DNA from: Stramenopiles sp. TOSAG23-2
Lineage: Eukaryota
NCBI GenBank assembly: GCA_900128395.1
Contig: LT649234.1
Location: 1-64,000 of the forward strand
Length of the DNA: 64,000 bases
Direction: 5' to 3'
Shown here: in pieces, positions 6,332 to 59,341 of the stretch
Layout of the letters: each line of letters starts with the position of its first letter
How positions within the stretch are numbered: position 1 is the stretch's first letter
Translations under genes and position numbers: made by a program
The notes under the pieces: model-generated
Seen by the model: the letters and a program-made list of their open reading frames with translations, nothing else
Database searches by the model: none
What the model was told of the DNA's origin: nothing

Positions 6332-8152
6332 TCAATCTTGGTACATCTTTTTCTTATTTTCATCAAAAATATATTTCTTAAAATTCATTGTTAATTTCAT
6401 ATTTTTCTTTATTTTACTTGGATCATCAAACGATACTTTGACTTTTCCTGATTTTCCAAATGGCCCATCAATATTACCAACTTGATTTTCAGGTGAATTC
6501 AATTTCATATTTAAAAATCTTGTCATATCTGAATTTTTCTCAAACAAACTTTTTACAATCACTGTACCATTTTTATCAACACGATCAACAACGCCAGATC
6601 GTTGCTTTAATTTATATATTTTCAAAGCATCTTTCAACAACCCTGAATCTTTTCCAAGCGGTTGAATCAAACGACCATAAAATGCAATACGAAACGTAGC
6701 TGCATTTACATCCGTATCTAATCGTGATCCAATCAACAAGCTACCAACAGGGCACATGACGGGTCCATCAAATTCAATCAATGCCCATTGCCCACCTTTA
6801 CCACCTTGTTTTCCACCAAGCAATTCATCTTGATACAAATAATCATTATCCGCATTAAAATCATTTAATATAGTTGTCCCTCCTCCTTTACCTTTACCTT
6901 GTTGAAGTATAGCCAATTCTTTCGAACCGAAAAACGTCACAGTAGCCATAGCGGTAGTATGGCCAATAGAAATATGAATTTTAGTTTTTGAACGACATTT
7001 ACCTTTGAAAAAAAATGCTTTTACACGACGTACATGCGCAACTGCACTGTGAATGGATGGTACAGAACCAGGCGTTGCAACAAAACCACGCTCCATCGAT
7101 TTTGCATCTAATCCAGCTACACATATACCTAAGCGATCACCTTGAATAGCACTTTCAACAGGACGTCGAAACATTTGTATCGATTTAATTTTCTTTTCAA
7201 CTCGTAATGTTGGTAATTCCACTGTATCGTTAATTTGTAATCCACCTGATAATACCGTACCAGTTAATATCGTACCTTTACCTTTAATTGAAAAACAATG
7301 ATCAACTGCAAACAATAAATTACCATCTCCCGATCGTTGTGGTATTGATATTTTATCTTTTAATTCATCTACTAAAGTATTCATCCCAATAGAATCTAAT
7401 TTACTAACAACGCCACCATCTTTATCATCAACATTATTATCATTATTACCATCATCGGTATCCTTTTTCTTATCCTCATCAGTTGTTCCATCATCTAATG
7501 ATAATTTGTTATCCATATCACTTTTTAATCGATCTGCTTCTGTAACTGCTGCTCGTTTCTCACCACCAACTGCAGCAGCAACAGGTATCATGGAACAATT
7601 TGCAAATTTCGTTTTATTAAATACATTACTTAATTTTTTCTTTAAATTTTCAATAAATGTTTCACGTTTTTCTTTTTCGATTAAATCAATTTTATTTAAA
7701 ACAACTACAAGTTCTTGTGCATTTGAACATACTTCACCAATAATTAAACATTCTGCAGTTTGCATTTGTATTCCTTTGTTCACATCAATGACTAAAATCA
7801 TAATATCTATAATTTGCGCACCAGTGATCATAGTACGTATCAAAGAAGCATGACCTGGACAATCTACTAACGTAAATTGTAATTTATCATAATTATTTGC
7901 TATCTCTGGATTTTCTTTAATTAATTTCTCTGGTAACGTAGTTTTAAATGCAGAAAATCCAAGATCAAGTGTAATTCCTCGGCGTCTTGATTCTGGATGT
8001 TTATCCAATGACGCAGTGGATAATTGCGTACTCAATGCTTTGACTAGACTTGTTTTACCACTATCAACATGTCCTAATACACCAACATTGATATTTAATA
8101 TTCTTGGATCTTTTTTCTTTTTCTTTTTCTGTTCTGTTGCAATGCTTGCCAT
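6332..8152 (-). CDS. EEFSEC: Selenocysteine-specific elongation factor (eEFSec/SelB)
   Basis: NINVGVLGHVDSGKTS, RGITLDLGFS, DCPGHASLIRT, NKID, VDHCFSIKGKGT, GSRLD and C-terminal G.IDGPFGKSGK. Likely ATG at 8152. Confidence 0.93.
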   Translation of the reverse strand: MASIATEQKKKKKKDPRILNINVGVLGHVDSGKTSLVKALSTQLSTASLDKHPESRRRGITLDLGFSAFKTTLPEKLIKENPEIANNYDKLQFTLVDCPGHASLIRTMITGAQIIDIMILVIDVNKGIQMQTAECLIIGEVCSNAQELVVVLNKIDLIEKEKRETFIENLKKKLSNVFNKTKFANCSMIPVAAAVGGEKRAAVTEADRLKSDMDNKLSLDDGTTDEDKKKDTDDGNNDNNVDDKDGGVVSKLDSIGMNTLVDELKDKISIPQRSGDGNLLFAVDHCFSIKGKGTILTGTVLSGGLQINDTVELPTLRVEKKIKSIQMFRRPVESAIQGDRLGICVAGLDAKSMERGFVATPGSVPSIHSAVAHVRRVKAFFFKGKCRSKTKIHISIGHTTAMATVTFFGSKELAILQQGKGKGGGTTILNDFNADNDYLYQDELLGGKQGGKGGQWALIEFDGPVMCPVGSLLIGSRLDTDVNAATFRIAFYGRLIQPLGKDSGLLKDALKIYKLKQRSGVVDRVDKNGTVIVKSLFEKNSDMTRFLNMKLNSPENQVGNIDGPFGKSGKVKVSFDDPSKIKKNMKLTMNFKKYIFDENKKKMYQD

Positions 8153-9229
8153 GATGGTATGTATGTATATAGAGTATATCAATAAAATATCTTTCTTTAA
8201 TTATTATCTTTTACAAATTAATTTATTTTATATATATATATATATATAAATTTATATATATGAAAAAATCTCTATATATCTTTTCAATGAAATAAATGCA
8301 ATCTTTAGATACGAATGATACTGATGAAGAAGATATAAATAATAATAATAATACTAAGCATGTAGAAGGAGTATCCCTACAAACGTTTGTATCAATTGAA
8401 TGGCTATATATATTTGTAGAATGGGGTCTCAGGGGTGTAAATTCATTAATATTTTTAATATTTTTTCTTTCGTCGCGCATCATATTTTTTTTATTATGAT
8501 ACATATGATATACGGATATTTACATTCAATGCTATTTTGAAATATTTATCATTAGTTTTTGGTGTGTTAGTAAGGAAAAAAACACCCACGCCCTCGTACA
8601 TGCATTTATATAACCAATTATTATACTAGATATCAATTTTTAAGGAAAATAAATAACAAATTTCAAAGTATAAGAACATAATTTACATAAGATTCTTCAG
8701 TAGTTTTAATAGATTTTTTGTATACTTATTTATACTTGTATTAAAATATACATAGATTTAAAATGAATATTTGTGTAAGTACGCTAATTGATACTAAATA
8801 GAAATTTTTTATCTGCCATGCCTCTTCATTATTACGTAGAAAGACATTTCTTTTTTTTCTATATAGGAAACATGTGAAAAAATAGGTGTGAAATCTTCAT
8901 ATTGTGCTATTTGATGATGTAAATAAAAAATTTGATCGAAATAATCAAGGAACATTTTCATCGGTATCAATTGTCAATTATCTCCTTAAAGTTGCATTTA
9001 TGGAAACCATTGGAAAATGAGTAAATTTCAGCTTTCTACAATGATGATATGCACATATCAATGATTTCAATGTTTCATTTTTTACTCTTTTCATCTTTTA
9101 ACAGAATTTCGAATGGAAAAATTTGTTCAACATTGGATTTTTCACCAAACGTGCAAACCCTAAGGCAAATCTCCTCCTCTTTATATCTTTTTCAACTCCA
9201 TTTTTTTTTTAATTATTATTTTTTTTATT

Positions 9230-9669
9230 TAGAGTTATCGACATTAAAGATGGTGAATTTTTTTTTTTTTTTTTTTTTTTCAATTTTTTTTCCAGCCCTC
9301 TAGTATGGAAATAGCATTAATAGGATAAAAATACCATTACATGGACGATTTCAGGAAGGAGTTAAATTTTTCATTGTGCGTGTTTGTTGTTTTGAGTGAT
9401 TTTTTTCAACTTTTTTTTTCCAGCCCTCTAGTATGGAAATAGCATTAATAGGATAAAAATACCATTACATGGACGATTTCAGGAAGGAGTTAAATTTTTC
9501 ATTGTGCGTGTTTGTTGTTTTGAGTGAAAATTTAAATCCTTCCTGAAATCGTCCATGTAATGGTATTTACATCCTATTAATGCTATTTCCATACTAGAGG
9601 GCTGGAAAAAAAAAGTTGAAAAAAAAAAAAAAAAAAAAAAATTCACCATCTTTAATGTAGATAACTCTA
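9230..9669. mobile_element. Fold-back / MITE-like element with ~140-bp inverted arms and an internal 128-bp tandem duplication
   Basis: The left end TAGAGTTATCGACATTAAAGATGGTGAA..CCAGCCCTCTAGTATGG.. is the reverse complement of 9525-9669. The unit starting at 9292 is repeated at 9420. TA lies at both ends. Confidence 0.75.
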
Positions 9670-9753: not shown

Positions 9754-9930
9754 CTCATAATCAATAAGTTTTATAACCAAAGATAACTAGTAAATATAAG
9801 AATTGATATCACATCATACCATATCATATCTCTCCTCCAATTCTCATAATCAATAAGTTTTATAACCAAAGATAACTAGTAAATATAAGGATTGATATTT
9901 CATCATACCACATATCATATTCCTCCTCCA
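9754..9930. repeat. 89-bp-period tandem duplication upstream of CSN2
   Basis: CTCATAATCAATAAGTTTTATAACCAAAAGATAACTAGTAAATATAAG.. occurs at 9754 and 9843 with a few substitutions. Confidence 0.9.
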
Positions 9931-15826: not shown

Positions 15827-15906
15827 TTATTAATATATTGGGTGAAATTTATTTGGTGGATCTTGCGCCCATTTTGATGGAAGAGCGATAGGTGTTGGTT
15901 GTGGGG

Positions 15907-18875
15907 TTACAACACTAAGCCATTGTACTCGCTATCAGTCAGTTGTTTCCCAGCTTTTTTCCACGCCTCTCGCATTTGATTTTTGCCTTTGTCCGTGATT
16001 TGTTTTTTGCCTAGCTGCCCTAAGGAAAGGTAGTTCAATGCGGTCATCTTGGCCAGGGCGGGCGCTAAATGCTCGCACCCTTTGTCCGTGATTTGGTTGC
16101 AGCGTAAGTCAAGCCTTTCCAATGCGGTCATCTTGGCCAGGGCGGGCGCTAAATGCTCGCAACCTTTGTCCGTGAATTTGTTGAAGTCTAAGTTAAGATA
16201 GTTCAATGCGGTCATCTTGGCCAGGGCGGGCGCTAAATGCTCGCAACCTTTGTCCGTGATTTGGTTGCCCTCTAAGTCAAGGCTCCACAATGCGGTCATC
16301 TTGGCTAGGGCGGGCGCTAAATGCTCGCAGTCCGTGATTTCGTTGCCGCTTAAGTCAAGCGTTTTTAATCGGGTCATCTTGGCCAGGGCGGGCGCTAAAT
16401 GCTCGCAACCTTTGTCCGTGATTTTGTTGAAGTCTAAGTTAAGATAGTTCAATGCGGTCATCTTGGCCAGGGCGGGCGCTAAATGCTCGCAACCTTTGTC
16501 CGTGATTTTGTTGTATTGTAAGTAATTGTTGTAATTTAAGTTAAGCTCTTTCAATGCGGTCATCTTGGCCAGGGCGGGCGCTAAATGCTCGCAACCTTTG
16601 TCCGTGAATTTGTTGAAGTCTAAGTTAAGATAGTTCAATGCGGTCATCTTGGCCAGGGCGGGCGCTAAATGCTCGCAACCTTTGTCCGTGATTTTGTTGA
16701 AGTCTAAGTTAAGATAGTTCAATGCGGTCATCTTGGCCAGGGCGGGCGCTAAATGCTCGCAACCTTTGTCCGTGATTTGGTTCTTCTCTAAGACAAGCTC
16801 TTTCAAGTTCGTCATCTTGGCCAGGGCGGGCGCTAAATGCTCGCAACCTTTGTCCGTGATTTGGTTGCTGCGTAAGGAAAGCTCTTTCAATTTAGTCATA
16901 TTGGCCAGGGCGGGCGACAAATGCTCGCAACCTTTGTCCGTGATTTTGTTTTTGTTTAAGTAAAGCGTTTTCAATGCGGTCATCTTGGCCAGGGTGGGCG
17001 ACAAATGCTCGCAACCTTTGTCCGTGATTTGGTTCTTCTCTAAGACAAGCTCTTTCAAGTTCGTCATCTTGGCCAGGGCGGGCGCTAAATGCTCGCAACC
17101 TTTGTCCGTGATTTGGTTCTTCTCTAAGACAAGCTCTTTCAAGTTCGTCATCTTGGCCAGGGCGGGCGCTAAATGCTCGCAACCTTTGTCCGTGATTTGG
17201 TTCTTCTCTAAGACAAGCTCTTTCAAGTTCGTCATCTTGGCCAGGGCGGGCTTTTCAATGCGGTCATCTTGGCCAGGGTGGGCGACAAATGCTCGCACCC
17301 TTTGTCGGTGATTTGGTTGTTGTTTAAGTAAAGCGTTTTCAATGCGGTCATCTTGGCCAGGGCGGGCGACAAATGCTCGCAACCTTTGTCCGTGATTTGG
17401 TTGCCGCTCAAGCCAAGCTCTTTCAAGTTCGTCATCTTGGCCAGGGCGGGCGCTAAATGCTCGCAACCTTTGTCCGTGATTTGGTTGCCGCTCAAGCCAA
17501 GCGTTTCCAATGCGGTATTTTTCTTTAACAGTTCCGCGACGATAAGCATATCCTCGTCGGTTAAGTTTTTACTGCTCAAGTCCCATTCTTTGCTCATATC
17601 CCAAAAAAAGAAAAAGCCAAGCTCTTTCAATGCGGTCATCTTGGCTAGGGCGGGCGATAAATGCTCGCAACATTTGTCCGTGATTTTGTTGTTGTTTAAG
17701 TAAAGCGTTTTCAATGCGGTCATCTTGGCCAGGGTGGGCGACAAATGCTCGCACCCTTTGTCCGTGATTTGGTTGCAGCGTAAGTCAAGCCTTTCCAATG
17801 CCGTCATCTTGGCCAGGGCGGGCGATAAATGCTCGCAACCTTTGTCCGTGATTTGGTTGTTGAGTAAGGAAAGCGTTTCCAATGCGGTCATCTTGGCCAG
17901 GGCGGGCGACAAATGCTCGCAACCTTCATCGTGTATGCCACACCCACTGTGAGCGCGCTCCAAATTTAGATCAATAATGGAAGTGTTGTGCTTCAACGCC
18001 GAGGCCAACGACTGGACTTGTGCTGGTATCAACTTTATCCCTATGTTTAATTCAGTGATGGTGTTGTTGGTAATCGCACGCAACGGCAACCCAGCGCCCA
18101 TCTCTATCAAGGATTTTAAATACCCGCACAGCCCCAACTTTTCTTTCCGCATTTCAAAGGCCACCTGCGCCACCCTGAACGCAATGGACAGCCCACTGAT
18201 AATCAACGATTGGATCAAGGCCGTTCCTGCTTCCTTCGTGATTCCTAAACAATTGTCTTCGTTCCCATCACAATAAAAGAAAATATACACTTGAAGAATG
18301 GTCTGTGGAAAGGATTCCAACAAACTTTCGCCCAAGGTGCGCAGTGCCTCGTATTGTGCCATAAAGGTGACCAACCCGTTCGGCAAGCACCTCTCCAACC
18401 CTTTGTAAAACGGCATCAAGATATCTAGGAACAGGGGGGAAATTGGAATCACAGGAAAAATCAATCCACAGCAGAAGAAATCACAAGCATTCCATTCTCG
18501 TTCCTTACTCAAATAGCGCATAATCCCCACGACCGCCACCACATAAGGCAATGCGATACAAATAACCATTATGTTAAACCACCCATAATGCTTAAACCGA
18601 TAGAAGGTGATACACAATATCACATCCGTATAAACGTCTAGAAAATACAGTGCCAAATTGATAGCGGCCAGGCAAAAATTGCCACACCAAAACACTTTTG
18701 GAAACTTTTGTTGGCATCCATCCACCTGCTTCCTCAAGGCACTTTTCTGCCGTCTTATATGGGAAACACGGCCTGCTGCGATATCCACCACCACTCCTCC
18801 CACCGCAACTGCCGCCATAGTATTGTTGGCCGTGTTCAAGACCGACTCCACCGATTTAACATTCTTTTGGTTCAT
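15907..18875 (-). CDS. XK-related (CED-8/Xkr-like) membrane domain fused to RI-like LRR array; frameshifted near 17251
   Basis: TM region has LYFLDVYTDV and LRTLGESLLESFPQTILQVY (XK signature). It is followed by 28-aa repeats xLxLxxNxITDKGCEHLAPALAKMTAL. ORFs 17232..18887 and 15907..17466 join across a 52-nt deletion. Confidence 0.75.
15985..17930 (-). repeat. 84-bp tandem repeat array encoding LRRs (~21 full units plus partials)
   Basis: Near-invariant GTCATCTTGGCCAGGGCGGGCGCTAAATGCTCGCAACCTTTGTCCGTGAT alternates with a variable ~30-bp segment. Confidence 0.95.
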
Positions 18876-19188
18876 TTTTTCTACCAAAATTGTTTTTTAA
18901 TCTATTTTTTTCTTGGATCGTTAAATTTAATTTTGCTTTTTGATTTTATTTTTGCTTTTTTGCGTTTGCGGTCAAAAGGCAGGGGCGAAATAATGACAAA
19001 GAAAATCAACCACAATAGGTAGGGGTTTTATCCAAAATTGGATGGGTGTGAAGGAAAAGTGTTTTGTTTTGTTGCGCGTTGATGTGCGTATGTGCGTATG
19101 TGCGTTTCAATATTGTGGCAATTAAAAAATATTGAACTTGCCTTGAGCTAATAATAACAAAAAAATATCTAAAAAAGACATTTTAGAA

Positions 19189-22367: not shown

Positions 22368-25300
22368 TTACTTCTTCTTCCTTTTACTTTTACTACTCTT
22401 TTTATCAACTTTCCCTTTTGTATTGCCTCGCTTTGCAGCCCTTGCAGCAGCTCTTTGTTTTCTCTTTTCATCACGTTCTTTTGCTCTTGCAGCAGCATCC
22501 ATTTTCCCAGAGCCTTGTGCACGTCTTTGTAACCTTTTTTGTCTCTTTTCACGCTCTGCATCATCAGCTTTTTTCTTTGCCAATTTTGCTTCTGCGCTAT
22601 TTGCTTCCTCTTCTGCTTTTCTCTTTGCCATTGCTGCTTCCATTTTCTTTTCAGTTTCTTCTTGTTTCTTAAGTTTCTCTGCAAGTATACGTGCTTCTTC
22701 TTCCTCTTTAGCTTTTTGCTCAGCAGCTGCTTTCTCAGCCATTTTTTGGTCATATTCTTCCTTATTTTCTTCTGCAAGTTTCTCCAACCTTTCAGCTTCT
22801 TCACGTTTAGCCTTTTCTTCCTCTGCTTTTTTTTGACGTTCTGCACGCTCTTCTTCTGCAATACGTTTCTTTTCCGCTTTTTCTGCTTCTTCCTTTTCTT
22901 TTTGTGCTTTTTCCATTTGTTCTCGTAACTCTCGTGCTTTTTTCATAGCTGCCTTTTGTGCCTCCTCCAATTCTTTCTTCTCGCGTTCGGCTTCTTCTTT
23001 TTCTCTTCTTTCCTCCTCAATTAATTTCTGCTTCAAACGTTGTGCAGCAGCTTCTTTAGCAGCAGCATCTCGTTTAGCTTGAATTTCTGCTCTTGCCAAT
23101 GCTTTTTGACGTTTTTCAGCACGCTTTGCAAGTAATTGCGTAATACGGAATTTAGGATAAAAATATGGCGCTGCAAGCACTTTTCCAACCATACCACCTG
23201 GTATGTCATCGTCCCATCTTTTCTTCACCTTAATACGGTCTGCACCTCCAGCTTTTGCATCAAATTTTCCAGCAACCCTAGCATTTGCTTGTTCAGTAAA
23301 GCTCATTGTTTGTGCACCACGTCGCGCTTCACGCGCCTTTCTTCTTATTTCTGCTTCGCGTCTTAAACGTGCATTTTCAGCCTTTTCTCTTTGACGTTGC
23401 GCATACATTTGACCAGCCAATCTAGCTGATTCTCTCGCTAGTTGTGCCTTTTTATATGTATCTCGTATACCTTTTCGTATTGTCATTTTTGCATTTAACA
23501 AAGTCATATTGAAACCTTTTAATTCAAGTTGTCCATGATCAGCTGTTAACCACCACATTGCAAATTCACCAAAGTCAATTTCTCCACTTCCATCACGATC
23601 AATAGCTTTAAGAGCTTCTGCAATTTGCTTTCTATCCATCAATTCACCAACTTCATAGGCTAATTGTTGGAATTCTTTCGCATCTATTTCACCACTTCCA
23701 TCAGCATCAAAGACATCGAATGCAGCTCTAATTTCTGCAAGCTCAGTTTCATTTGCAGTTAAGAAACCACGCAAGCGATCGGCGTAACGATCTTCGCCCA
23801 TCATACTACCCCATTCGTGTGAAATTGGTTTCAATTGCTTCAATGAAATATTTCTTCGACGTTTTTGCATCATTAAGCGGAATCGTTCCATACGACGTCG
23901 TCTACATGCAACTTGCAACGCAAAACGCAATGCCAATTCTTTCTCCCGTCTTTCCGCCAATGCAAGCCTAACAGCTTCTAATTGCTCATCGCGTTCTAAA
24001 CTATCTTGGACCCATCGCATTTTATGATGCGACAATGTTGGCACTCCATTTTGATTCATGATGACAAGTTGAGAGATGATTCTCTCCGCTACTCTTCGTA
24101 AGTTTCTATGGCGATCTATGCCATTCAACAATCCAGGAATATCCTCACAAGCCCCGGTTAATACATCTTCATCAGGAACGATAACCATACGCTGTTGCGT
24201 AGCAGGCTCAAAACCAAGAATAAACAGACGACCCAAGCCTTGTGCAGGCGCTTTGCTTTTCCCCCGAATAGCTTGCAAAATAACCAATCGACCATGCGGC
24301 GGCAATCTTCGAACAACTTTACAAACAGTTCGATCCAATGCAATTTTGGATTTGTTTTTTTGCAATGTTAAATGTTTTAGCATCCATTGAATCATATTGT
24401 CACGGTCATATAATGGACGATGCCCCAAATGATCTTCACGACCTTCTCTTGACGCTGCTACTAATGATTCTAGTTCATACTGATGTACCTTTGTTGAAAT
24501 AATGCGCATATTATTGACTTCAGCAGCATACTCTAACGCAGATCGTCTATACGTTCTTCTACTATATTCAGTACGAGTGTCTTCATCATCTAAAACAGTC
24601 GCAGCCAGCAATGGTTTTGTACTAGTAGCTTCTTGATAGAGTTCTTTTAATAGAGCTGGCTTACAATTTTGTCGCAATGAACGTCGTTCATTCATGTTTT
24701 TCTTCCATCTTGGCAAGCGTATTTTTTTCGCTGCAGCTGCAATCTGTGCATTTTCTTGTGTCATGTCCATGTCTATCTTTTCATCCCGAGAAATAATTTC
24801 ACCCTTCTTCCCCTCAGAATGATCAATTTGATCTTCAGCAACTTCAGTTGACTTTAATGTTGGAACTGGTTGAGATTTTGTTGGAACCCAATCACCAGGT
24901 TTTAATTCCGATAATCGTTTTGCTGCACTAAGGTCTGACTTGATAATATCATTTCCACTAACGCGACCTTTTTCACCTCTCATCATCCAAATAACATCAC
25001 CAACGACATCTTTTTGAGCCAATATAGAAGCACGAAGATTTCTAGTGATAGAGTAACGATAAAATAATACCGCACCTGTTTTTGGCAACACCATTCGTTC
25101 TATACGACGCTCCGATGCGGGATTTCCTTGACCCAGTAGATGCAGCACGGCATTTTGCCAAGTGGCCAAAGATAGCCGTAAAAGAGATGCTCTTTTAGCA
25201 CTATTTACGGGCAAGAAGACCCCAGTGAAATGTGTTGGCATGGCATTGGAATTAGTAGCAATATTTAAATCATCCGAGACTTCATCTCGTTCAAATAAAT

Positions 25301-28300
25301 CTAAACTGCTTTCAGTAGCTGATTTTTTCTTCTCCATAGCTTTGTTTAAATCCCACTCTAAATCATTTTCTGCATTTTCACCTGTTTTAGCAGCACTTGC
25401 AAGATCTTTTAAATTTAAAGTTGGTTTATCTTCCACGTGGCGTATATGTTGTGTTTTGTGATCATTCGCTGCAAACTCTTCCACAAATAAATGTTCAAAT
25501 GTGGCGCTAGTCTCATCATCCATATCTAAACCTTCCATATAGTCATCTGTTTTTTTTGATGATAATGCAAGATCAGCTCCCTCCACGGTGCCTTTCTTGT
25601 TCTTCTTTTTCTTTTTCTTCTTACCTTTCTTGGCACCTTTTTTATGCCCATCATCTACAGATCCATCATCGCTTGGAGCATTCATATTTGAAGGAGTTTG
25701 CACGATCCAATCCTCGTTTCCACCACTCGTGCTCCTTGAGCTTAATGAACCACCTTGTGAAGCGGCTGAGGATGCGCTTTCGACCGGAATAACATCCGGT
25801 GCATATGCCATTAAGTTATCAAATGTACCATCAACTTCATCTGCAATTGCTTTTCTACTTAAAGCGCCTTTGAAATCGTGAGCTATTTTCAAGACAGTAT
25901 CCTCCGCGAGTAAATTGGAAATCGCTCCAAGGATATTTTTCTTATCGATATGTTTATCCCATGTTAATTTAGTTTCCTCTTCATTTACATAAGTTGCAGA
26001 AACACCTAAGTTAGAGCCGACACCTCGCAGTGTACGGCGTGAGAACCATCGTTCCTTTCGTATATTTAATTCAATTGCTGTATCATATGCAATTTCTTTC
26101 CCAACTTTTACAGCAAGTCGTTTTTGCAACTCTTCTTTGATTCCGTGAGTTTCCAAACCGCGAACTTCAAGCGCCTTTCTGAGTGCAAATGTTTGCATTT
26201 CAAATGGCTTTGGGTATTCTTTTTGCATTCCTTCCTCCTCCTGTAATTCTTTGACAGTTGGGGGCACAGCAACAGCTAATTCTTCATCTGCTACTTCAAT
26301 AGTCCATTGCTGAGATGATTCTGGATGGTATGCTTCGTACCTTGCACCACCCTGACCACGCCATAAACTAACTAACAATCGCATAGGTGTCCCATCTGGC
26401 CCTTTACAAAGTTTCGATGTTCGTAACAATGGACGAGGTTTCTCTTCCAATCTATTTGGTTTTCCATCTTGTGTCTTATCAACTTTACTGAGCCAACTTA
26501 AACTGGAATATGCTTCATTACCACTTCCAGTGCAATAAGGCAGCAATGCAGCACGTTTGCAGAAACGATACTTTTTACCATGTACTGGTAAGGCTGTTGT
26601 TCCAGCACTAGGTGACAAGGAAAGCATGAGACCACCTTCATGCCCCACCGTATTTGGACGCAAAACCAACATATCCACCATTTCAATCGCAGCTTTATTG
26701 ATACCTAAATGTTTTCTCCAACGTTTACCATCTAAATCATCAGCATCGATCACCACAGCATGGGTCTCGGCACGCGCTGGATCATATACTTCTACCCGCA
26801 ATATACTACTTAAATCCATTGCACTACCATGTCGACGGCCAACTTGGGATACACCTTGCACAGTTACTATAGCAGTAGTATTTCTAATTTTTCTAACAGT
26901 CCTGTACCAAACCTTTCCAAAGTCTCTTGAATCCCTCTCATGATCCATTTGTTTTTTAATTGACATTGGATCATCGATCGAGTATGGTTTTTTTCCCAGT
27001 CGTCTCCATCTGCGTTTCAATTTTGATTTAGTTGGTCTCCAATTACCTTTACCAGCCTTTTGAAGCGCGTGCATCACTTCTGGAGGAACCTCACTTAGAT
27101 TTTGTAAATCACTTGTCTTCCAAAAATGTATCCCTTCCGGTAGTAGTACAAACGATTTCGTTTCATCCGGCAATCGCGGCGTACCTTCGTCAACTGCAAT
27201 TACTTTCTTCGTTCGAGGAAATTTGTAACCCAACTGAAAGACTACACTCGCATACATATTATCTTCAATCCCTGATGTCGTTAAGAGCTCGCTGACTTTG
27301 TCGACTTTCAAACCAAATACGCTATCAGTATTTGTTACGTATCTTAAAGATTGGAAGACGCTAGGATACATTGTATGAGAATTTGGTTCTTTTTCATCAT
27401 CTATATTGGCAAAAACAGGTTCCCATGCTTGTACTTTTTTCTCTTCAACGACTTCTTCCTCGACGTCTTTCACGACAACTGGTGGAAACGCAATTCTTGA
27501 TCTATTTTCAAATGTATTCATAAGTTCCGAGTCAATCATAGCTTCATCATCCCTATCGCCATATTTTAATGATATTCCCATACCAACTCGCCTGGATAAT
27601 TGGGTCAAACGTTGCAACCTATCTGCAGCTACGTTTTCTATACGAGGAATCTTTTCAACTGCTTTCTTTTTCTTCACTCTCTTTTTTACAAGCTTCTTAG
27701 TAACCTTTACGCTTTTTTTAATATTTTCCAACATATATGTTGTTGCTTCATCAGCCACATGTCGATATGCTTCTTCATTTGCCATTAATATTCTCTCTTC
27801 TTTTGATCGGCGTCCATCGCCTTCCCAAACGGTTTCTGGTCTCATTCGCACCCAAATGTTACGACTATCCTTGTAAGAACCAAATTGTCGTACCATAATT
27901 TCAACAACAAAGTGAGTAGCATTGATTAAGCGACCTTTGACATGTCTCCCACCAAAGCAACGCGTGCCGTAAAATATTCGTTTCCAATGTTCTTTAGGTC
28001 GTAACCGAGATATAACTAATCGCAAACCACTCTTTAATTTTTGATGCGCCACCTCACGCCTCCAAGCGCTACATACTCTCAAATGCTTTTTACGTTCCAA
28101 AGTTTCATCGTAAAATTGACCCGCGCAATCACGGATGGCACTTATTAAACGATCACACGTAGCCTTACCTAGATCTCTACTTGCTTTCGCATCATTCAAA
28201 TTCTTAGCCAACATACGTAACAATGCCATTGGTTTATGTTTACCACCATCAGCTTCTGCAACATCTTCAGCCGCTAATGCTAAGTCACGCAGACGCAAAT

Positions 28301-31300
28301 ACTCTACTTTTGCATATTCTAATTCCTTTTTCAACGCATTTAGTCGCCCAAATGTATGTATACATTTCAACGCAGCAGTCTCCGCCATTTTCTCCAATGC
28401 TCTCAATCGTAATGTCATCATCTTATGGCGTCCAGCATCTGGATCAGGCCTCAAAGCAAGCAAATCAAGCATGTATTTCCACATTTCAATACCGCGATCG
28501 CTTAATAATTTAGGCTCGTCCTTTAGCACTACTCTTAATCGATCCCGAGAAACATTTATACTATGTCGATGAGCACTTCTTGGATCATGCGCTTCTAGTA
28601 TCATATCTCCACGTGAATTTTCTAAGACGCTAACAGTCATTTGCTGCCCACTAATATTCCTAGTCTCTTGATGTTTTATCATGTATGTCTCTCGCAATCT
28701 TTTCCTTAAAATCAATATCTTCACCCCAGCACCACTGTCTTCTCGTAAACCCCTTGATTGGCCTTTGCGTATATCTTCCATGAAGCCCATAGCATCCCAT
28801 TGCAATGTGCCAATGCCTTCCCAAGGTGGTGGAGGTTGTTTTGGAACAGTGATAAATGTTAATTTATCGACTATACGACGCAATAAATCCGGGCTGTAAA
28901 CATTGGTTTTAACAGAGCTTTCCCAGTAATCAGCCCATTTTGGAACCTCGCTTAGCGCTGCAGTAACATCATCAAAAAGCACTCGCAAGGAACAGCCGAG
29001 TCCACTGCGGGGATGATAAGCCTCAAAAACTAAATCGCCGTTATTTTCATGTATGGATAATACAACATAACCACCACCAACTTTTCTGCCTTCACTAAAT
29101 ATTTGCACTCCTTTTCCACTAGATTTTTGTTTGAGCATATCACGCCACCAATAACAGCGTTCTAATCTTTCAAATAAGATACGACGCCGTTTACGTAATA
29201 AAAATTTGTCTAAAATAACATCATCTTTATCGTACCTATTCAAACAAAGTAATTTAATCAAACGCTCGATGACGACACGTCGTCGATTGTCGAATACATT
29301 CCTTCGTTGCACAAAACCTCCATGGGGTTTACCTGTGCGTAGGGACCACATGTCTACAGATGCAGCATGGAATATCACACTGCACTTAGGACATCTCAAA
29401 ACTGGACCCCCTCGACCATCTACACCTATGTTAACACCTGAATATGGGTGTGGACGCAGTGCGATCTCATGATCTTTCACCGACGTTAAGCGTTGACGTG
29501 CTCGAAGCCTGTGGCCACATCCTTCCGTTGGACAAAAAAATTGTGTATCTGCATCTTCTTCTATAGGATCAAATAAGTCTCTATTTTCATGCCCTAATGC
29601 ATCAACTAAATCTGGGCGATTGAATGAAAGCAAAATATGCTTCCGGGTTTCAGGCTCATAAATTGAAATGGCAATACCCCCAACGAACGGAGGAAGTTTA
29701 TTTTGACTAGACATCGGATCTTCATAGACACTGATTATTGCTAATTTCCTATGTGGTTTTTGATTTAAAAATGGTTGCGATACTAAGAACATAGCTTTTC
29801 TATATCTCATATTCCAACCACCAAATACAATAGGAACCGGGCGTAATGGCTGTATATCAATTGTCCATTCGGGTTCAAAGAAGACCAACGAACGCCTCCC
29901 ATTTGTACGCGGTAACGCGCGGAGAGTTAACATCTTTAAAATTCTGTGAACAATTTCAACCATCATTGGTCTGGCAACTTTACTACTTTCAACAATACGT
30001 GTACATTCGCGTCTTGCAACAATCGATCGTTTCAAGGCTTTATCATATAAAACTTTTGCATCATCAACTCGACCTTTTGCTTTTTGCATAATATATTTAG
30101 CTTTAAAATGATGACGTCTTGCTTCCTCGCGTTCCAATGTACGCAAAATCAAAGATTTCTTCGCTTCATATTTTCTTTTAATCCAGATGTGATCATTAGC
30201 ATTTTCCAATGGATCGAACGAAAAACTTTCATTTGACCGACTCAAGTCAGCAAATACTGCTAATTGCTTTTGTACAAAATGCATTGAATTATCACTAGCA
30301 TATATCATAGCTTGCAATTGAATTTGCGTACGGAAATATAATCTATGCGCTTTTAAATATAAGTGTTTCATATGTGCAGCAAATGCAGCTATTTCACGAA
30401 ATGCTTTTTCAACTTTGTCTAATGCTTCTTTTTTCTCCATGGCATCCTTTTCACAAGCAAGAGCAAACCGTTCAACATCCCTGGCATTTTTGAAAGCTTC
30501 AGCAGATTCACGCAATGGTTCAAAACGATCACGGCGATATACACCAATATTTTGCCTCAAGCAATAATCACTAGGCAAGCGCTCATATCTACAAGCAGTA
30601 GGCACCAGTGCATCCATTGCCTGCCCTCGTCTTTTTGTGTCTAGTAGTATTCTTCTTCTCATTTCTTTTTCGGAGACAGACAAACTGTAAACAACACTTC
30701 GCATCGCACTGTAACCACGTACCAACATACGTTCTATCGGCCTTTCCGTTTTACATGTACATGGACCGTGCTGCACCACCATTCGCTGTGTGGCTAAATC
30801 CCACCGCGCCCTTGGACGCCATTTTAAACAAGAATAGCAAGTTGCAATTACTTTACGATATTTATAATCGTAATGATTACTTCTAAAGACCTGTAAAACA
30901 ACATCTTCATTATCCATTTGATGTGTTCGTGAATACACAGGCTTTAATATAGCACGTCGAGCCTTTTTAATTCCTTGTTTGAGAATCTCTGGGACAACTC
31001 GTCTAGCAGTCAAAGCACACGCCATTTCTCTTGCAACATGCAATTTTACTTTAATTTTTCGGTTTTGCCTAATCATCATGGACAGTGATCGTGCAACATG
31101 GCCACGATAAACCCTTTGACACGTATTTGCAGCAAGAGTTCGAGCACGATACCGTGCAACTGCAGCTTCTGCTTTGTCAGCATCTAACAAAAGCAAGGAA
31201 CCTTTAATTTCCCTTGCAAATTTGACAAGTGCAATCACTCTTTTTACATCTATTAAATCAGGATTTCGAATACTTTTAATTATCAGTCTTTGAACCTTAC

Positions 31301-34300
31301 TACGTAATTTTGCCCTGTCCTCACCATCTCGTTTCAACTTTAGTTCATAATAATGATGTTGCGAACGTTTTCCACGAACGGTGAATCCATTCTTAGTGAA
31401 GTTCATACCATCAAAACAAACTCTAAATTCACCCTGGTTTGGATTCAACCATATACCTTTTTTTTTCGACTGTTTTGGTAAGCGTTTTTGTGGTACTTTT
31501 AATGATACACCACCTTGAGAATATCTAGCAATCTTAACCGTTGCTCTGCTTTGCAGATCATCTTGTATTTCTTTCTTTTTTCTTTCCTCTTGCAGAGCTT
31601 CACGTTCCTCTTCCAATGCAACTTCATCAACACTTTCACCACTATCACTATCTCCATCTTCATCAACTTTTTTAAAGTCAAGATGAATTTCAGCTGTTAA
31701 ATCTTCAAAAAATCCTTTTGGTGGAATAAAGAAACCATTTCCGACAGCATATGCAGGTGGAGGTGGAGGTGGATCGATGATATTTTCTTTGGTTACAAGT
31801 AGTTGTTGTTGATCTTTATTATCAGTTGTAGTGGTAATCCCAATTGACGTCTGTTCCATTGGTTTAGAACTGACAATACTGCTACTTGTCGTAGTACCAC
31901 TAAGACCGACTGATCCTGCTTTCATCTCTTGTTTTACTACTCCAACAGTTTGACTTGGTTGTTGTTGTGTTGTTATTGATTGCGATGAGGTTGTTTGCTG
32001 TTGAGATGGCGCCGTTACTGTCTGTTTTTGCTCTTTATTTATTACATTACTTTGTGCAATACTATCTTCCTCATTATTATTCATTTTCTTTGTTTGTGAC
32101 AAGCTATTTTCTTCATCTTCTTCTGTTTCATTCGTTTTCTTCTCTTTTAATTCTTTACTTCGTTTCATATCTTCTTCTATAGTATCCATCATTTTTGCTA
32201 TTTCCAGCTCTTGCAATATGCTATAACCTGAGCGTTGAATACGTTCCATATCTAATACTTCAACATCTTTTCCCTCATTACGTTTCACAAAATCCTTTAA
32301 TTGTTTCCTGCTGAATGGCATTTGCGGCATGTATGTTTTATTTTCACCAACAGTTAATGTTGTACCAACTGCTAAATGTCCAAACCATTCAGTAGTACCG
32401 TTAGAATATTTAATAATTTTAGCACCGGGCTGTCCAAACTTTTCACCTTCCCTATTTTCTGCTCCACCATTAGTTGATTCTTCTGAAATTTTTTGATAAT
32501 CAAATGGTTTTAAAATATCATCTAAATCATGTACCATACTAAACGGATTACGCACCAATGGAAATCTAGGACCTAAATATTCCCTTAAAGGTTCACATTT
32601 ATTTAAAAAATCCATATCGTGAGGAATTTTCAGGAGATAATTCATGCCATTCCACAAAAATGGGGCATTGAAGCCAACGCCTCCTTCTAAACTTTTAACT
32701 TTACATATTTCACATACAGATTGTTCTTTGCCAAGATGCTTGACCTTACTTTCCACGGCCCAATGACCACATGGTCTTTGAAAAATGACACGTTCATACA
32801 TTCTATCGACAGTCGTATTATGCATTACCGCTTGTTCATTTCTAGCTTTGTCATATGCAGTTGCTGCATCGTATTCCGTTTTAAAATAGCCAATTGAAAT
32901 CCATTTATCTGCCTTCTTGTCTAACGTACGTGGACGCGAGAATCGTTTTACTTTCGATTCATATGGTGGACAACCACGGTACAATAACTCCCCTTCTACT
33001 AAAATTTTCACAGCAAAACCTTGTGCAGCAGCTGCTCTTGCCAATGCACCTGGACCTCCACCATGTTTCATCTTTAAACGCTGCAAGCGTACTGCATCAC
33101 GCCATTTACTAATATTTTCAACAACTTCTACCGTTGCCGCGCGCATTTGTGCCATTAAATCCAACAATGGCCTTACATCACTTTCTCGTACATATGAACC
33201 GACATTATCTTGAAATCTACGTGTTGCATTATTTTGTTCATTCATTATGGCAGAAAGTAAATCTTCCCGTTGAGTCAACGCTTCGATTACTTTGCGTTCT
33301 AATCGCGCATCGACTTCCATTCGCAATTTTGCACTCCGTGCTTTTTCTTCTTGAGACGTATAATAATGACGCTTTGAACATACTTCTTTACTATTTGGAC
33401 ATCGTAACAAAACCCAATCTTTACATAAGGGTGGTACTTGATCATCATGCAAACCATCAATTACTAAAACGCCACCACCTAATTTAATAACCGTTGTATC
33501 GTCCATTGCGGTTTGATAAAATGTATTAGGGGCTTGTAATACTTGCATTTCTGTATCTACACGTGGTTCATATGCTTTTTGAATTTTCTTTTTTGCTTGT
33601 ATGATTTGAGCAGGTGATCCATCATCCATACCTTGCTCATCCACGATTGGAGGCAATTTAAGACGACCTTCCTCACCGTCTTCATCGATGGTATCCTCCT
33701 TTAAAGATTGAGATGCTTGTTGCAATTGCTTTTGCATTTTTTCCGCTTCCATCTTTTCAGCATGGTCTTTCCTATCCAACCGTGCTTGTAAGCGGTCGGC
33801 TAAATCCAATCGTCCCATCGCTTGTCCTTCCATAATTAAACCACGAAATGAACCTTTTTCTGGTGGTGGCAATGTATCTAATATTTCATCTAATGGAGGT
33901 GGTTCAGGCAAATCTTCTTTTATTTTAGCTTTTTCCCATGGTGGTAACACTCGCTTCCGCCTCTTTTTCCTACGTTTTTGTACACTTGTTTGCTCTTCTA
34001 TTGCTTTCATTTCCTCATCACGTTTATTTGCTTTCCCTTCATCTAAAAAATCTGGATCAACATCCTTTAACACAGTTAGACGATCGATTTCACTAACATC
34101 TGGCACGGCATATGGTTGAAATCCATGTATTTGTATATGTTCTCTCCATTTTTTAACTTCAATTTCCACTGCTTTTGCATGTCCGACTAAAAGTTCATAT
34201 GCTTCTTTATCTTCCATCAATTTTCTTCTAGCCGCACCACGTTCTTCGAATGTCATACCCGGTCCAGCTTTTTTTAAACGATCTGTTCTAGCTGCTAAAT

Positions 34301-42813: not shown

Positions 42814-43352
42814 CTTTTGTTGTTGTTGTTTGTACGTTGCTTTACCGTATTTCTTGTTGTCTTATTACTTATTTTTTTTGTATGTGTGTTTAAATAATAA
42901 AAATAATACCGTAGTATATATAATATCAATAGTGTGTGGTGTGTTTTTTGTTGTTCATCATTGATGAAATTAAAATCATCAGTGCCCCACCAGCCTTTTT
43001 TTTCTTGTTGTAGTAGTAGTAGTATGTTGTTGTTATTACTACTATGTACTACCGCTATAATAACTCTATTCAAATACTATAGATACAAACAAATAATAAA
43101 CGACATTTACAAATTTGTATATATACATATAATTAAACATTATTATTTCTTCTATAACTTGTTTGAAAGATTTTTTCAAGTGTGCTCTATCTCTGACATA
43201 GATATCAAAATTTTTTTTTTGTTATAAAATTTGTACATTTATATAATACACAAAAATAATATACAACATTATCTGTAGCAGTTGTAAATCAATATAAGAA
43301 TAAATAGTAGTAAAACTTGTCCAACTCGTTTCAAAACAATTTATACATAAAA

Positions 43353-45488
43353 ATGGGTGCAGTGACAAATATGTTTTTCTTGATAATTAGCATTGTTTTT
43401 GGATTCATTACATTCATTTATATAGATAGCGCTATATTTGTAAAACATTCATTGTGTAATATATACAAACTACATACACAACGTGGCACAAGAGGTTTAA
43501 GACACTTTAGTGATTATAATAATATATATAACAAAGATGTACAATTGAAAAATAAAAGTCAAGGTTTGCATATCCTATCTAATAATACAAAGAAGAAGAA
43601 TATTTCTGCAATGAAAACAATTTTTGATAGAATTAAAACATCTACAGCAAGTTCTGCTATAATTGTAAATAATGTGAGTAAGACAAATATGAGGTTGGGA
43701 CCAATAGAAATTACTAATGCTAAACGTTGTAACGCGTATCCATCTAAAAAATTCAAAGTTCTTGCAAGTGTACATAGAATTTTCAATCAACATATTAATA
43801 CTAATAATAGCAAATCAATAGAAGGTATGATAAAGCAAAAATTTCCATCATTTGTTTTCGAAAAAGGGTGGTTAACATTAACTAACATAAATATAAAAAA
43901 TAGAGATGGACGTGGCCATTCGAATGTATATAAAAAAGAAAATAGAAGTAACTGTCAACAAGGAAAAAACTCATATACATGGGATTCTCATGCAAAGGAA
44001 TGTATGTATCCAGTTCCGCAAACCAATAGAATGCTTGCTCTTATTGAACTTGGCCATTCAACAGCATGTAAGTTTAACTCTAACGCTTGTAAAATTTTTC
44101 TCAAAGCTATAGGTGACATGTTTCATCGCCTTGAAGCTCTTGAAAAGCAATGCGTAGATATTGTAAAATCTGGAAAGATAAGCACGCATTTTCCTGATCA
44201 TAGAAGTTTTAATAATTTAGGTACAGTTGAAAATGAGAATGAAGCACCTTCTCGTATTATTGTATCGATAACAACTATTCCTAGTCGTTTCGAGAACGCC
44301 GATGCTATAACAAAAGCAATTAAATCTGTACTTTTTGATCAAGTCATGAATGCTGATATTGTATGGATTTCTGTTCCAAAGATTAGTAGACGCTTTGGAA
44401 ATGCATACCCACCTGTCCCTTCAAAGTTAAAAAAGTTGGAACGAGAAAGTAATGGTCGCTTTTCTGTTTTAACATGTGAGGATTTTGGCCCAGCTACAAA
44501 GTTAATCCCAGCATTGCAACATGCTCGACCTAATGATATCGTTATAACTGCTGATGATGATAGTCTATATCAACCATGGGTTATTGGTAATTTAGTTCGA
44601 ACCAGCGTTGAAAAAGCTCCAAATTCAATTGTATCACATATAGGATATAAGTTAAAAGGTGGCAAACCGAGACATCCAAATTTTCAATATTACAGTCTGC
44701 AATGGCATGCAAAAAAGTTAAGGGAAGTAGATTTTATTGCTGGTTTAGGTGCCGTCCTTTACAAACGTCGATTTTTTTTCAATGCTGAATTATCTAAAAT
44801 ATTTCAGACGTCTGAAATATTGATTGATAATGCCGAAGGTGAGCAACGAAGGAAAAATTTAAAATTTACATCTTTCCTGGAAGCTGCATTAGAAACAGAT
44901 CAATTTATTGAAGGCCGATACGTTGATGATGATTATATCTCTGGTATAGCAAGCGTCATGGGCGTTTCAAGAATTATAACTCCAGCATGTGATGATTGTG
45001 GATATGGTGTTATATGGAGTCAAGTTACAGAAGCAAATGCGCTTAGTTCCGGCCATAATAAAGACAAGAATATAGAAAGGCAATTTCATGTTATATCTAA
45101 TTTTCAGAAATTAAATCTTTTACCAACTGCTTGTAAGCGTGGATCGAAAACTAAGACTAGAAAAACCATACATAATAGGAAAAAACCAAAAGTGAAAGAA
45201 AAACCACTATTAATTACTCCTCTAGCAATAAATGGCACGAACAATTCTACAACGAATCGAAACCATACAACATTATCGTTAAATGCTAATGTGATACCAT
45301 CTAAGGAGAAAGGTATATACAATTCTACAACGAATCGAAACCGTACATCATTATCGTTAAATGCTAATGTTATACCATCTAAGGAGAAAGGTATATTTGA
45401 TATTAAATTTTTATCTTTAATGAGGGAATGGTATGACAATCATGACTGCATTGGATATGATGATCAATGTCAAAATTGTTTTGTGTAA
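43353..45488 (+). CDS. Type II membrane glycosyltransferase-like (GT-A fold)
   Basis: N-terminal TM helix; IIVSITTIPSR, DFGPATKLIP, ITADDD, VDDDYIS. Confidence 0.8.
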   Translation: MGAVTNMFFLIISIVFGFITFIYIDSAIFVKHSLCNIYKLHTQRGTRGLRHFSDYNNIYNKDVQLKNKSQGLHILSNNTKKKNISAMKTIFDRIKTSTASSAIIVNNVSKTNMRLGPIEITNAKRCNAYPSKKFKVLASVHRIFNQHINTNNSKSIEGMIKQKFPSFVFEKGWLTLTNINIKNRDGRGHSNVYKKENRSNCQQGKNSYTWDSHAKECMYPVPQTNRMLALIELGHSTACKFNSNACKIFLKAIGDMFHRLEALEKQCVDIVKSGKISTHFPDHRSFNNLGTVENENEAPSRIIVSITTIPSRFENADAITKAIKSVLFDQVMNADIVWISVPKISRRFGNAYPPVPSKLKKLERESNGRFSVLTCEDFGPATKLIPALQHARPNDIVITADDDSLYQPWVIGNLVRTSVEKAPNSIVSHIGYKLKGGKPRHPNFQYYSLQWHAKKLREVDFIAGLGAVLYKRRFFFNAELSKIFQTSEILIDNAEGEQRRKNLKFTSFLEAALETDQFIEGRYVDDDYISGIASVMGVSRIITPACDDCGYGVIWSQVTEANALSSGHNKDKNIERQFHVISNFQKLNLLPTACKRGSKTKTRKTIHNRKKPKVKEKPLLITPLAINGTNNSTTNRNHTTLSLNANVIPSKEKGIYNSTTNRNRTSLSLNANVIPSKEKGIFDIKFLSLMREWYDNHDCIGYDDQCQNCFV
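45241..45396 (+). repeat. 78-bp in-frame tandem duplication
   Basis: NSTTNRN(H/R)T(T/S)LSLNANVIPSKEKGI is encoded twice (45241-45318, 45319-45396). Confidence 0.92.
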
Positions 45489-59271: not shown

Positions 59272-59341
59272 TAATCAATATTCATCACTAACATGTAATG
59301 CATTTTTCAATTTTTCTTCTTCTTTTCAAAACAAATTAGTA

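Follow-up and report, generated by a model that had tools for sequence, protein, structure and literature searches.

Probable concerted evolution of a 22-unit leucine-rich repeat array with diversified strand codons behind an XK-related-like membrane domain in a marine stramenopile

The leucine-rich repeats (LRRs) of plant resistance genes show diversifying change at exposed beta-strand residues, and unequal intragenic recombination alters the number of their units, which are usually diverged from one another at silent sites; lamprey variable lymphocyte receptors (VLRs), with 24-residue extracellular LRRs and cysteine caps, arise by somatic assembly out of donor cassettes that flank the gene; and LRRC8 channels carry a membrane domain followed by a long LRR solenoid. 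In brown-algal ROCO genes, each LRR is a separate exon and shuffling is exon-based; somatic recombination has been proposed for these genes, and the analogy to VLRs is raised for Ectocarpus (PMC3341825). In fungal NOD-like receptors (NLRs) with repeats of high internal conservation (HIC), exchange moves WD40, ankyrin (ANK), and TPR sensor repeats both inside a gene and from one gene to another, and positive selection acts on a handful of surface codons (PMC1805685, PMC4986451); the second of these papers gives the HIC criterion of >85% internal repeat identity over at least 100 residues. PMC12222747 adds that short-read assemblies of HIC arrays omit or create repeats, that some alleles carry frameshifts or stops, and that an LRR-bearing NLR with HIC has been reported in the sea urchin. 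Here, we describe an LRR array gene in a 64,000-nucleotide stretch (hereafter, the window) of contig LT649234.1 from Stramenopiles sp. TOSAG23-2. The gene is encoded on the minus strand, spans positions 15907-18875, and carries 22 LRR units of 84 nt (28 residues) behind an XK-related-like membrane domain; the array is known from this single assembled sequence. We consider it probable that this is a germline membrane-protein gene in which concerted evolution of the LRRs is coupled to diversifying selection on their binding face.

The array was recovered by several searches. Tandem Repeats Finder delineated period-84 arrays at 16034-17251 (14.4 copies), 17252-17516, and 17628-17926, and a 14-nt scaffold anchor occurred in 22 copies on the minus strand, spaced by exactly 84 nt in 17 of 21 intervals and by 204, 32, 102, and 78 nt in the remaining four. 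A 26-nt scaffold motif had 19 matches at up to three mismatches, all within 16067-17852, vs. 0 expected from 100 shuffles. The encoded unit reads CEHL[A/S]P[A/T]LAKMT-x-L-xx-L-x-L-xx-N-x-ITDKG and is of the ribonuclease-inhibitor (RI)/NLR type, based on its 28-residue period, the LxxLxLxxN motif, a strand-helix solenoid fold, and matches to Pfam LRR_6 (RI/NLR type) at E 9.2e-23 and 2.6e-64 in the two open reading frames (ORFs) over which the gene is split as assembled, ORF A (17232-18875) and ORF B (stop to stop, 15907-17568), respectively. In the AlphaFold model of ORF A, which includes units 1-7, strands and helices alternate across the LRR part with pLDDT 84-95, and the short beta-strands fall at the centers of the variable segments (hereafter, cassettes), e.g., residues 334-336 are the T-L-S of cassette ETLSLLN. 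The closest fold matches of ORF A are NOD2 (E 2.3e-11), NLRP3, and ribonuclease inhibitor; Pfam returned no NACHT or NB-ARC match in ORF A or ORF B, and no ROC or COR match in the ORFs scanned.

Variation among units is concentrated in a small and specific set of codons. We compared the 16 units that are exactly 84 nt long and in register; units 4 (interrupted by an insert), 7 (partial), 8 (junction), 16 (+18 nt), 18 (-6 nt), and 22 (the last one, with an insertion) stand outside this set. Across the 16 units, 55 of the 84 columns never vary; of the 29 that do, 19 belong to codons 12-21. Fixed codons are interleaved there with codons that vary at up to three bases, i.e., L14 is TTG in 16/16 units, L17 is CTT in 16/16, L19 is TTA in 15/16, and N22 is AAC in 16/16. 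The five x codons of LxxLxLxxN, defined from the LRR consensus and not from these data, rank as the top five of the 28 in variability (1 in 98,280 by chance), and they account for 61% of all pairwise nucleotide differences, or 72% if codon 13 is included. Pairs of units with different cassettes (n = 109) differ at 5.5% of the scaffold sites and at 53.6% of the sites of the variable codons; the corresponding values for the 15 such pairs within units 13-21 are 3.6% and 58.5%.

Nei-Gojobori counting over the 12 distinct units gave, for the six variable codons (13, 15, 16, 18, 20, and 21), a proportion of nonsynonymous differences (pN) of 0.546, a proportion of synonymous differences (pS) of 0.163, and hence a pN/pS of 3.34, as opposed to a pN of 0.036, a pS of 0.134, and a pN/pS of 0.27 for the remaining 22 codons. 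The interleaved L and N codons had a pN of 0 and a pS of 0.063. These results confirm the observation behind the original prediction, made from the letters of the window, which had proposed a near-invariant scaffold of about 54 bases and variability centered on the xxLxLxx strand, and had called for the comparison of exposed with scaffold codons that yields the above ratios (3.3 vs. 0.27). Its further claim that the scaffold is conserved even at most silent sites holds for the interleaved L and N codons, which are nearly fixed; for the scaffold as a whole, pS is low yet not zero.

The same cassettes recur along the array. KELVLEK is found in units 8, 9, 10, and 13, NYLNLDF in units 14, 15, 17, and 20, ERLDLRC in units 2 (17754-17837) and 21 (16078-16161), and KTLYLNN/K in units 3, 6, and 11; several units are identical over their full length (units 8-10 and 13; 14 and 17; 15 and 20). 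Exact internal repeats reach at most 165 nt, the next longest being 143, 140, 137, and 116 nt. This is roughly the length of a single cassette with the scaffold on either side, and hence identical cassettes stand between differing neighbors with no multi-unit block having been copied. Two variant sites of the scaffold, 9 nt apart, occur in all four combinations, which fits exchange inside the scaffold. Further, the scaffold (66 nt) differs by about 1 nt in pairs of units with the same cassette vs. about 3.6 nt in other pairs, KTLYLN is always preceded by a TTG-TCG scaffold, and ERLDLRC is always followed by GGG. Such co-travelling of scaffold variants with cassettes is what whole-unit duplication by unequal exchange would be expected to leave behind; judging from the sequence, a mechanism specific to cassettes is not required, and repeated rounds of unequal exchange in register, or of conversion, acting on whole units through the scaffold would suffice.

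Alternatively, the array might be diversified in a programmed or somatic manner, with cassettes copied or recombined within the lifetime of the organism so that each cell or clone carries a different receptor, as in lamprey VLRs or as proposed for brown-algal ROCO genes. The recurrence of identical cassettes at non-adjacent positions in different contexts and a constant scaffold that could act as recombination homology are both in line with this alternative, and the VLR analogy has been raised for Ectocarpus (PMC3341825). However, no scaffold-bearing donor cassette was found outside the array in the 64-kb window, the scaffold variants co-segregate with the cassettes as in whole-unit duplication, no reverse transcriptase or deaminase was found among the 25 ORFs scanned (from 32 of at least 150 aa), and the LRRs are of the 28-residue RI/NLR type and not the VLR type. 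We therefore regard somatic diversification as barely plausible. Among the specific systems considered, assembly of the lamprey VLR type was rejected based on the lack of a donor cassette elsewhere in the window and the RI-type units, a diversity-generating retroelement based on the lack of both a reverse transcriptase in the scanned ORFs and a scaffold copy outside the array, and exon shuffling of the brown-algal ROCO type based on units that follow one another directly in open frames, no intron separating them, and on the lack of a ROC-COR match.

Under the hypothesis we favor, the protein would consist of an N-terminal XK-related (lipid-scramblase-like) domain and a C-terminal RI/NLR-type LRR solenoid. 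The ~54-nt identical scaffold would permit unequal exchange in register, conversion, or slippage, by which whole units are duplicated, deleted, and re-ordered, and the same events would keep the scaffold near-identical even at silent sites, with selection for amino-acid diversity acting on the five to six beta-strand codons of each unit that would form the concave face (a placement that follows from established LRR structure rather than from a surface calculation). The outcome would be a long, quickly re-tunable protein-binding surface on an array that has grown to 22 units vs. 2-8 in relatives. Unequal recombination is thus the presumed mechanism and binding or sensing the presumed role of the array. 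All the cassettes listed in the original prediction are present, the identical ones do recur among different neighbors, and its proposal that recombination reshuffles them is supported by the four scaffold-variant combinations and by the absence of block copies, but the data call for no dedicated or somatic device since whole-unit duplication fits them as well. The label "receptor" that it attached to the gene is unproven, the LRRs being of the RI/NLR type; in addition, the gene is frameshifted as assembled.

The frameshift arises within the array. From the 5' end of the gene, units 1-3 and the initial 54 nt of unit 4 (17616-17921, minus strand) carry the cassettes ETLSLLN, ERLDLRC, KTLYLNN, and an interrupted KELG; a 120-nt in-frame insert follows (17496-17615, minus), consisting of a T-rich linker (FFFFWDMS) and a divergent 28-residue LRR unit, KEWDLSSKNLTDEDMLIVAELLKKNTAL, with CTTGGCTT at both edges; and the rest of unit 4 (ETLGLSG) and units 5-6 (KELGLSG and KTLYLNN) occupy 17298-17495 (minus). 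The truncated unit 7 (17252-17297, minus) leaves 32 nt between two anchors, the equivalent of a 52-nt deletion, with a breakpoint ...GCATTGAAAA|GCCCGCC near 17251/17252. This unit shifts the frame, and ORF A (ATG at 18875, 547 codons, minus) consequently ends out of frame in ...ALKSPPWPR* with a TGA at 17232-17234. Beyond the frameshift, 453 codons remain open, encoding units 8-22 in the second frame (15985-17251, minus, within ORF B), with cassettes KELVLEK (three times), KTLYLNK, KELSLRS, KELVLEK, and NYLNLDF (twice) in units 8-15 and KELNLNYNNYLQY (+18 nt), NYLNLDF, KTLDLSG (-6 nt), WSLDLEG, NYLNLDF, ERLDLRC, and NYLSLGQLGKK in units 16-22, followed by the C-terminal cap (C-cap), KNQMREAWKKAGKQLTDSEYNGLVL, and the stop (15907-15984, minus). 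The cap contains the motif MREAWKxAGK, which is common to relatives. None of the other length changes (+18, -6, and +120 nt) disturbs the frame. Removal of the frameshift by an intron is no more than a bare possibility; the sequence offers 37 GT..AG pairs with a length of 2 mod 3, seven of which keep the 84-nt period, but such pairs are trivial since every unit holds AAAG|GT, and no independent evidence favors them. This copy of the gene is, therefore, either a recently disabled allele or a local misassembly. The frameshifting partial unit, the insert, the XKR-like domain, and the compositional island described below were all absent from the original prediction.

The nearest relative, P0001 (348 aa, from a 1.5-kb contig), ends in ...KELNLVGFYVSWPR, where an out-of-frame reading of the scaffold LAKMT yields WPR-stop. 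The truncated, out-of-frame unit of P0001 is of the same kind as that of the window, and the two could reflect either a genuine lesion or an error of assembly, recurrent in both cases.

An alternative is that the array exists but that misassembly of near-identical 84-nt repeats generated the number and order of its units, the 32-nt unit, and perhaps the 120-nt insert. The exact repeats of up to 165 nt exceed typical short reads, in assemblies of which such units are omitted or created (PMC12222747), the out-of-frame unit is the sole defect amid in-frame variation, P0001 likewise ends out of frame (...SWPR), and no database protein reproduces the array of the window. On the other hand, the +18, -6, and +120 nt changes are all in frame, the N-terminal cap (N-cap) and the C-cap are conserved and correctly placed, and the divergent unit of the insert is found in an independent relative; that is, the divergent MLIVAELLKKNTAL unit also heads the short relative P0246 and a comparable module starts in P0004, and hence the insert resembles the start of a second LRR module and not junk. 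Misassembly could also not create the site-specific variability since the latter is seen across 35 other proteins as well (102 units of related database proteins, in which positions 16, 20, 21, and 18 have the highest entropy). We consider misassembly to this extent rather unlikely.

The frameshift with its premature stop is also what a decaying pseudogene would show, the array being in this case a neutral, minisatellite-like expansion by slippage after loss of function, with the cassette differences inherited from older functional units and free of selection by now. The runs of identical units (8-10 and 13, 14 and 17, 15 and 20) and a unit count that is extreme relative to the relatives are consistent with such decay, but the 453 open codons that lead to an intact, conserved C-cap, the in-frame nature of three of the four length changes, and the scaffold pN/pS of 0.27 are not. 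Decay is, therefore, quite unlikely in our view.

Comparisons to relatives place the long array in context. Searches with ORF A and ORF B among proteins of near length, and with ORF B among shorter ones, revealed no protein at least 90% identical to either ORF, the closest relatives being 73% identical or less and originating from environmental contigs. The 12 homologues in the alignment have both the N-terminal domain and the N-cap (17922-18065, minus; ITELNIGIKLIPAQVQSLASALKHNTSIIDLNLERAHSGCGIHDEG) but only 3-8 LRR units, and a scaffold-anchored scan found 2-7 units in 20 relatives vs. 22 in the window gene. Many relatives have nearly the same scaffold (NQITDKGCEHLAPALAKMT) and the MREAWKxAGK C-cap (e.g., P0009, P0010, P0246, P0252, P0260, and P0263) with wholly different cassettes. 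The LRR module is also found behind short N-termini that are borderline F-boxes (P0248 and P0259, E ~4e-4, at the cut-off). Separately, in Candidatus Protochlamydia amoebophila, a hypothetical protein of 716 aa (P0159) is 51% identical to the array over 43% of the query, revealing that similar RI-type LRR arrays exist in an amoeba symbiont.

The initial ~260 residues of the protein form a helical membrane domain (18096-18767, minus; model helices 37-260). It matches the Pfam XK-related family (PF09815) at E 6e-12 (45.6 bits vs. a cut-off of 24.8; residues 73-243 of the TTG-start ORF), although over just profile positions 2-177 of 337, i.e., half of the profile. Since a fold search with the whole of ORF A was dominated by the LRR part, the domain was modelled alone (56 aligned sequences; pLDDT 81.4, pTM 0.73), and four of the five best PDB fold matches of this model were XKR8, XKR9, or XKR4 (probability 0.96-1.00), albeit at weak E values of 0.096-0.42 and TM scores of 0.37-0.43; a sequence search of the PDB with the N-terminal 270 residues gave a single weak match, to XKR4 at E 0.77. 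RI/NLR-type LRRs are mostly cytosolic, and the RI type of the LRRs together with the F-box-like relatives suggests that the LRRs would face the cytosolic side of the membrane, where the array may be coupled to putative lipid scrambling.

For the N-terminal domain, 203 representative relatives were recovered at E up to 0.001. A Pfam scan of the partner domains of 44 of these found LRR_6 in 15, Decapeptide (PF25296) or pentapeptide repeats in 16 (e.g., P0393, P0397-P0399, P0410, and P0415), ankyrin repeats in three (P0335, P0336, and P0408), and filamin in one; five had an XK-related match only, one had an EF-hand only, and three had no domain match. Some of the decapeptide- or ankyrin-fused relatives also carry EF-hands, and XK-related was matched at E up to 0.001 in 24 of the 44, eight of these matches being below the curated cut-off. 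A protein atlas search recovered one cluster of LRR_6/XK-related proteins (score 0.90) and one with decapeptide repeats (0.82), neither of them with taxa. By its domain matches, the family is a modular one that combines a membrane domain with a repeat domain. A literature search found no paper that links XK-related proteins, LRRs, and protists, and none of the 10 papers listed, out of 58 on scramblase phylogeny, concerns an XKR-LRR fusion, judging by title. It is tempting to speculate that XKR-like domains with interchangeable, fast-evolving repeat sensors, be they RI-type LRRs as in the window gene or ankyrin or decapeptide repeats as in relatives, constitute a NOD-less sensor-executioner class of immune proteins in marine protists, with the LRR face binding a viral or parasite protein in the cytosol and thereby gating scrambling or membrane breakdown and a cell death of the abortive-infection type; we deem this very unlikely. 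Under this immune hypothesis, the concerted evolution of the array could be a population-level source of new specificities.

The whole gene stands out in composition. A compositional island at 15900-18880 coincides with the coding region (42-55% GC vs. about 27-36% in the flanks), its edges falling at the ORF ends, and the GC content at third codon positions (GC3) is 0.57 for the N-terminal domain and 0.67 for the array vs. 0.15-0.31 in all 17 other window genes measured. Biased gene conversion or recent transfer could both account for the GC3 island. That is, the whole XKR-LRR gene may have been recently acquired from a GC-richer donor, with its composition and repeats reflecting that donor, and the GC3 difference, the coincidence of the island borders with the ORF ends, and the distant (73% or less), environmental relatives would all be consistent with such an event. 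Against transfer, no flanking terminal repeats, target duplications, or mobile-element genes were found (the best candidates for terminal inverted or direct repeats at the island, 15-27 nt and 69-93% identical, were not convincing), the amino-acid composition is not distinctive, and GC-biased conversion in a recombining family could yield the same signal. The FYMINK/GARP ratio, tried as a transfer signal, was uninformative (1.42 for the N-terminal domain vs. a range of 0.87-3.33 in the window and 0.92-1.66 among the homologues). Overall, recent transfer seems unlikely.

Several observations weigh against the hypothesis of concerted evolution with diversifying selection and should temper its reading. 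The six codons behind the pN/pS of 3.34 were partly picked post hoc (codon 13), the units are non-independent samples, and pS derives from 35.7 synonymous differences over 218 site-pairs. Averaged over all pairs of the 16 units, identity amounts to 77.6% for amino acids (85.5% for nucleotides) as opposed to the 85% of the HIC definition in PMC4986451; with six variable positions out of 28, however, unit identity can hardly exceed ~79%, and runs of 100% identity exist (e.g., units 8-10). The high GC3 of the whole gene is not explained by a model of concerted evolution alone, no allele, paralogue, or population sample at least 90% identical was found among the database proteins, the match to the XKR fold is weak by E value and TM score, and the Pfam XK-related match extends over just half of the profile. 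Further, the frameshift may prevent production of the 15 units that follow it and of the cap. Nonetheless, we favor the hypothesis of concerted evolution coupled to diversifying selection as the probable one.

The rest of the window is that of an intron-poor, AT-rich eukaryote, encoding, among others, eEFSec, alpha-tubulin, GINS Psf3, PCI, and PPR proteins, a polycystin channel, and a CCT-motif protein. Four of ten window proteins have an exact match in the protein collection, the cluster sources of which include a marine plankton survey. The selenocysteine elongation factor (6332-8182, minus) is of the eukaryotic type (eEFSec domains III and IV), and hence selenoproteins are probably produced by the organism. 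One very long ORF (22368-35294, minus; 4308 codons) has an EF-hand pair near residue 3854 as its sole Pfam match. Two intergenic tandem duplications, at 9274-9527 (128 nt, two copies, 98%) and 9754-9930 (89 nt, two copies, 92%), lie just upstream of the PCI-domain ORF (start at 9990), and a 78-nt unit is present in two copies (96%) at 45241-45396, the 3' end of an unannotated 723-codon ORF (43317-45488). Adjacent PPR-repeat ORFs at 59135-60184 and 60219-61520 (both plus), 34 nt apart, may together make up a single gene that a frameshift or a short intron interrupts; the first of these overlaps the 5' end of an opposite-strand BD-FAE hydrolase ORF.

Near-identical arrays with a few diversified surface codons are a hallmark of fungal non-self recognition genes, and diversified LRR surface codons are also known in plant and animal immune genes. 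The gene described here would extend this device to a marine picoeukaryote lineage, where innate immunity against the viruses that control plankton is almost uncharted, with a scramblase-like membrane domain replacing the NOD as the partner, and the 203-member family offers concrete candidates for functional study. In practical terms, assemblies can be expected to break, collapse, or frameshift such arrays, and these appear to be missing from protein catalogues built on short contigs, as the 73% identity of the closest entry indicates.

In conclusion, the array most resembles the fungal HIC genes (e.g., het-d, het-e, and NWD of Podospora) in its near-identical DNA repeats, the few hypervariable codons on a presumed binding surface, the nonsynonymous excess, unit types that recur in varied order, frameshifted repeats, difficult assembly, and an N-terminal domain that is joined to other repeat types (ANK, decapeptide) in relatives; it differs in being made of LRRs and not of WD40, ANK, or TPR repeats, in having an XKR-like partner and no NACHT or NB-ARC domain, in its host, a marine unicellular eukaryote, and in a unit identity (77.6%) that falls below the 85% criterion. 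Like the LRRs of plant and other immune genes, it concentrates change at solvent-exposed beta-strand residues and would alter its number of units by unequal intragenic recombination, although its scaffold is homogenized, its domain partners are different, and its period is the 28-residue one of the RI/NLR type. It shares with brown-algal ROCO genes LRR shuffling, diversifying selection on the LRR domain, and a protist-grade host, and with lamprey VLRs the LRR concave face as the diversified binding surface. The N-terminal domain resembles the scramblases XKR8, XKR9, and XKR4 (PDB 8xej, 7p14, and 9boj) by a Pfam match above the cut-off and by its best fold matches, although the solved animal XKR chains (about 320-360 residues) are without a long C-terminal repeat region, and to our knowledge animal XKRs carry no LRR domain; LRRC8 channels share the order of a membrane domain ahead of a long LRR solenoid. 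The proposed device, concerted repeats with a diversified face, would be the one known from fungal NLRs, built here from LRRs and attached to an XKR-like domain in place of a NOD.

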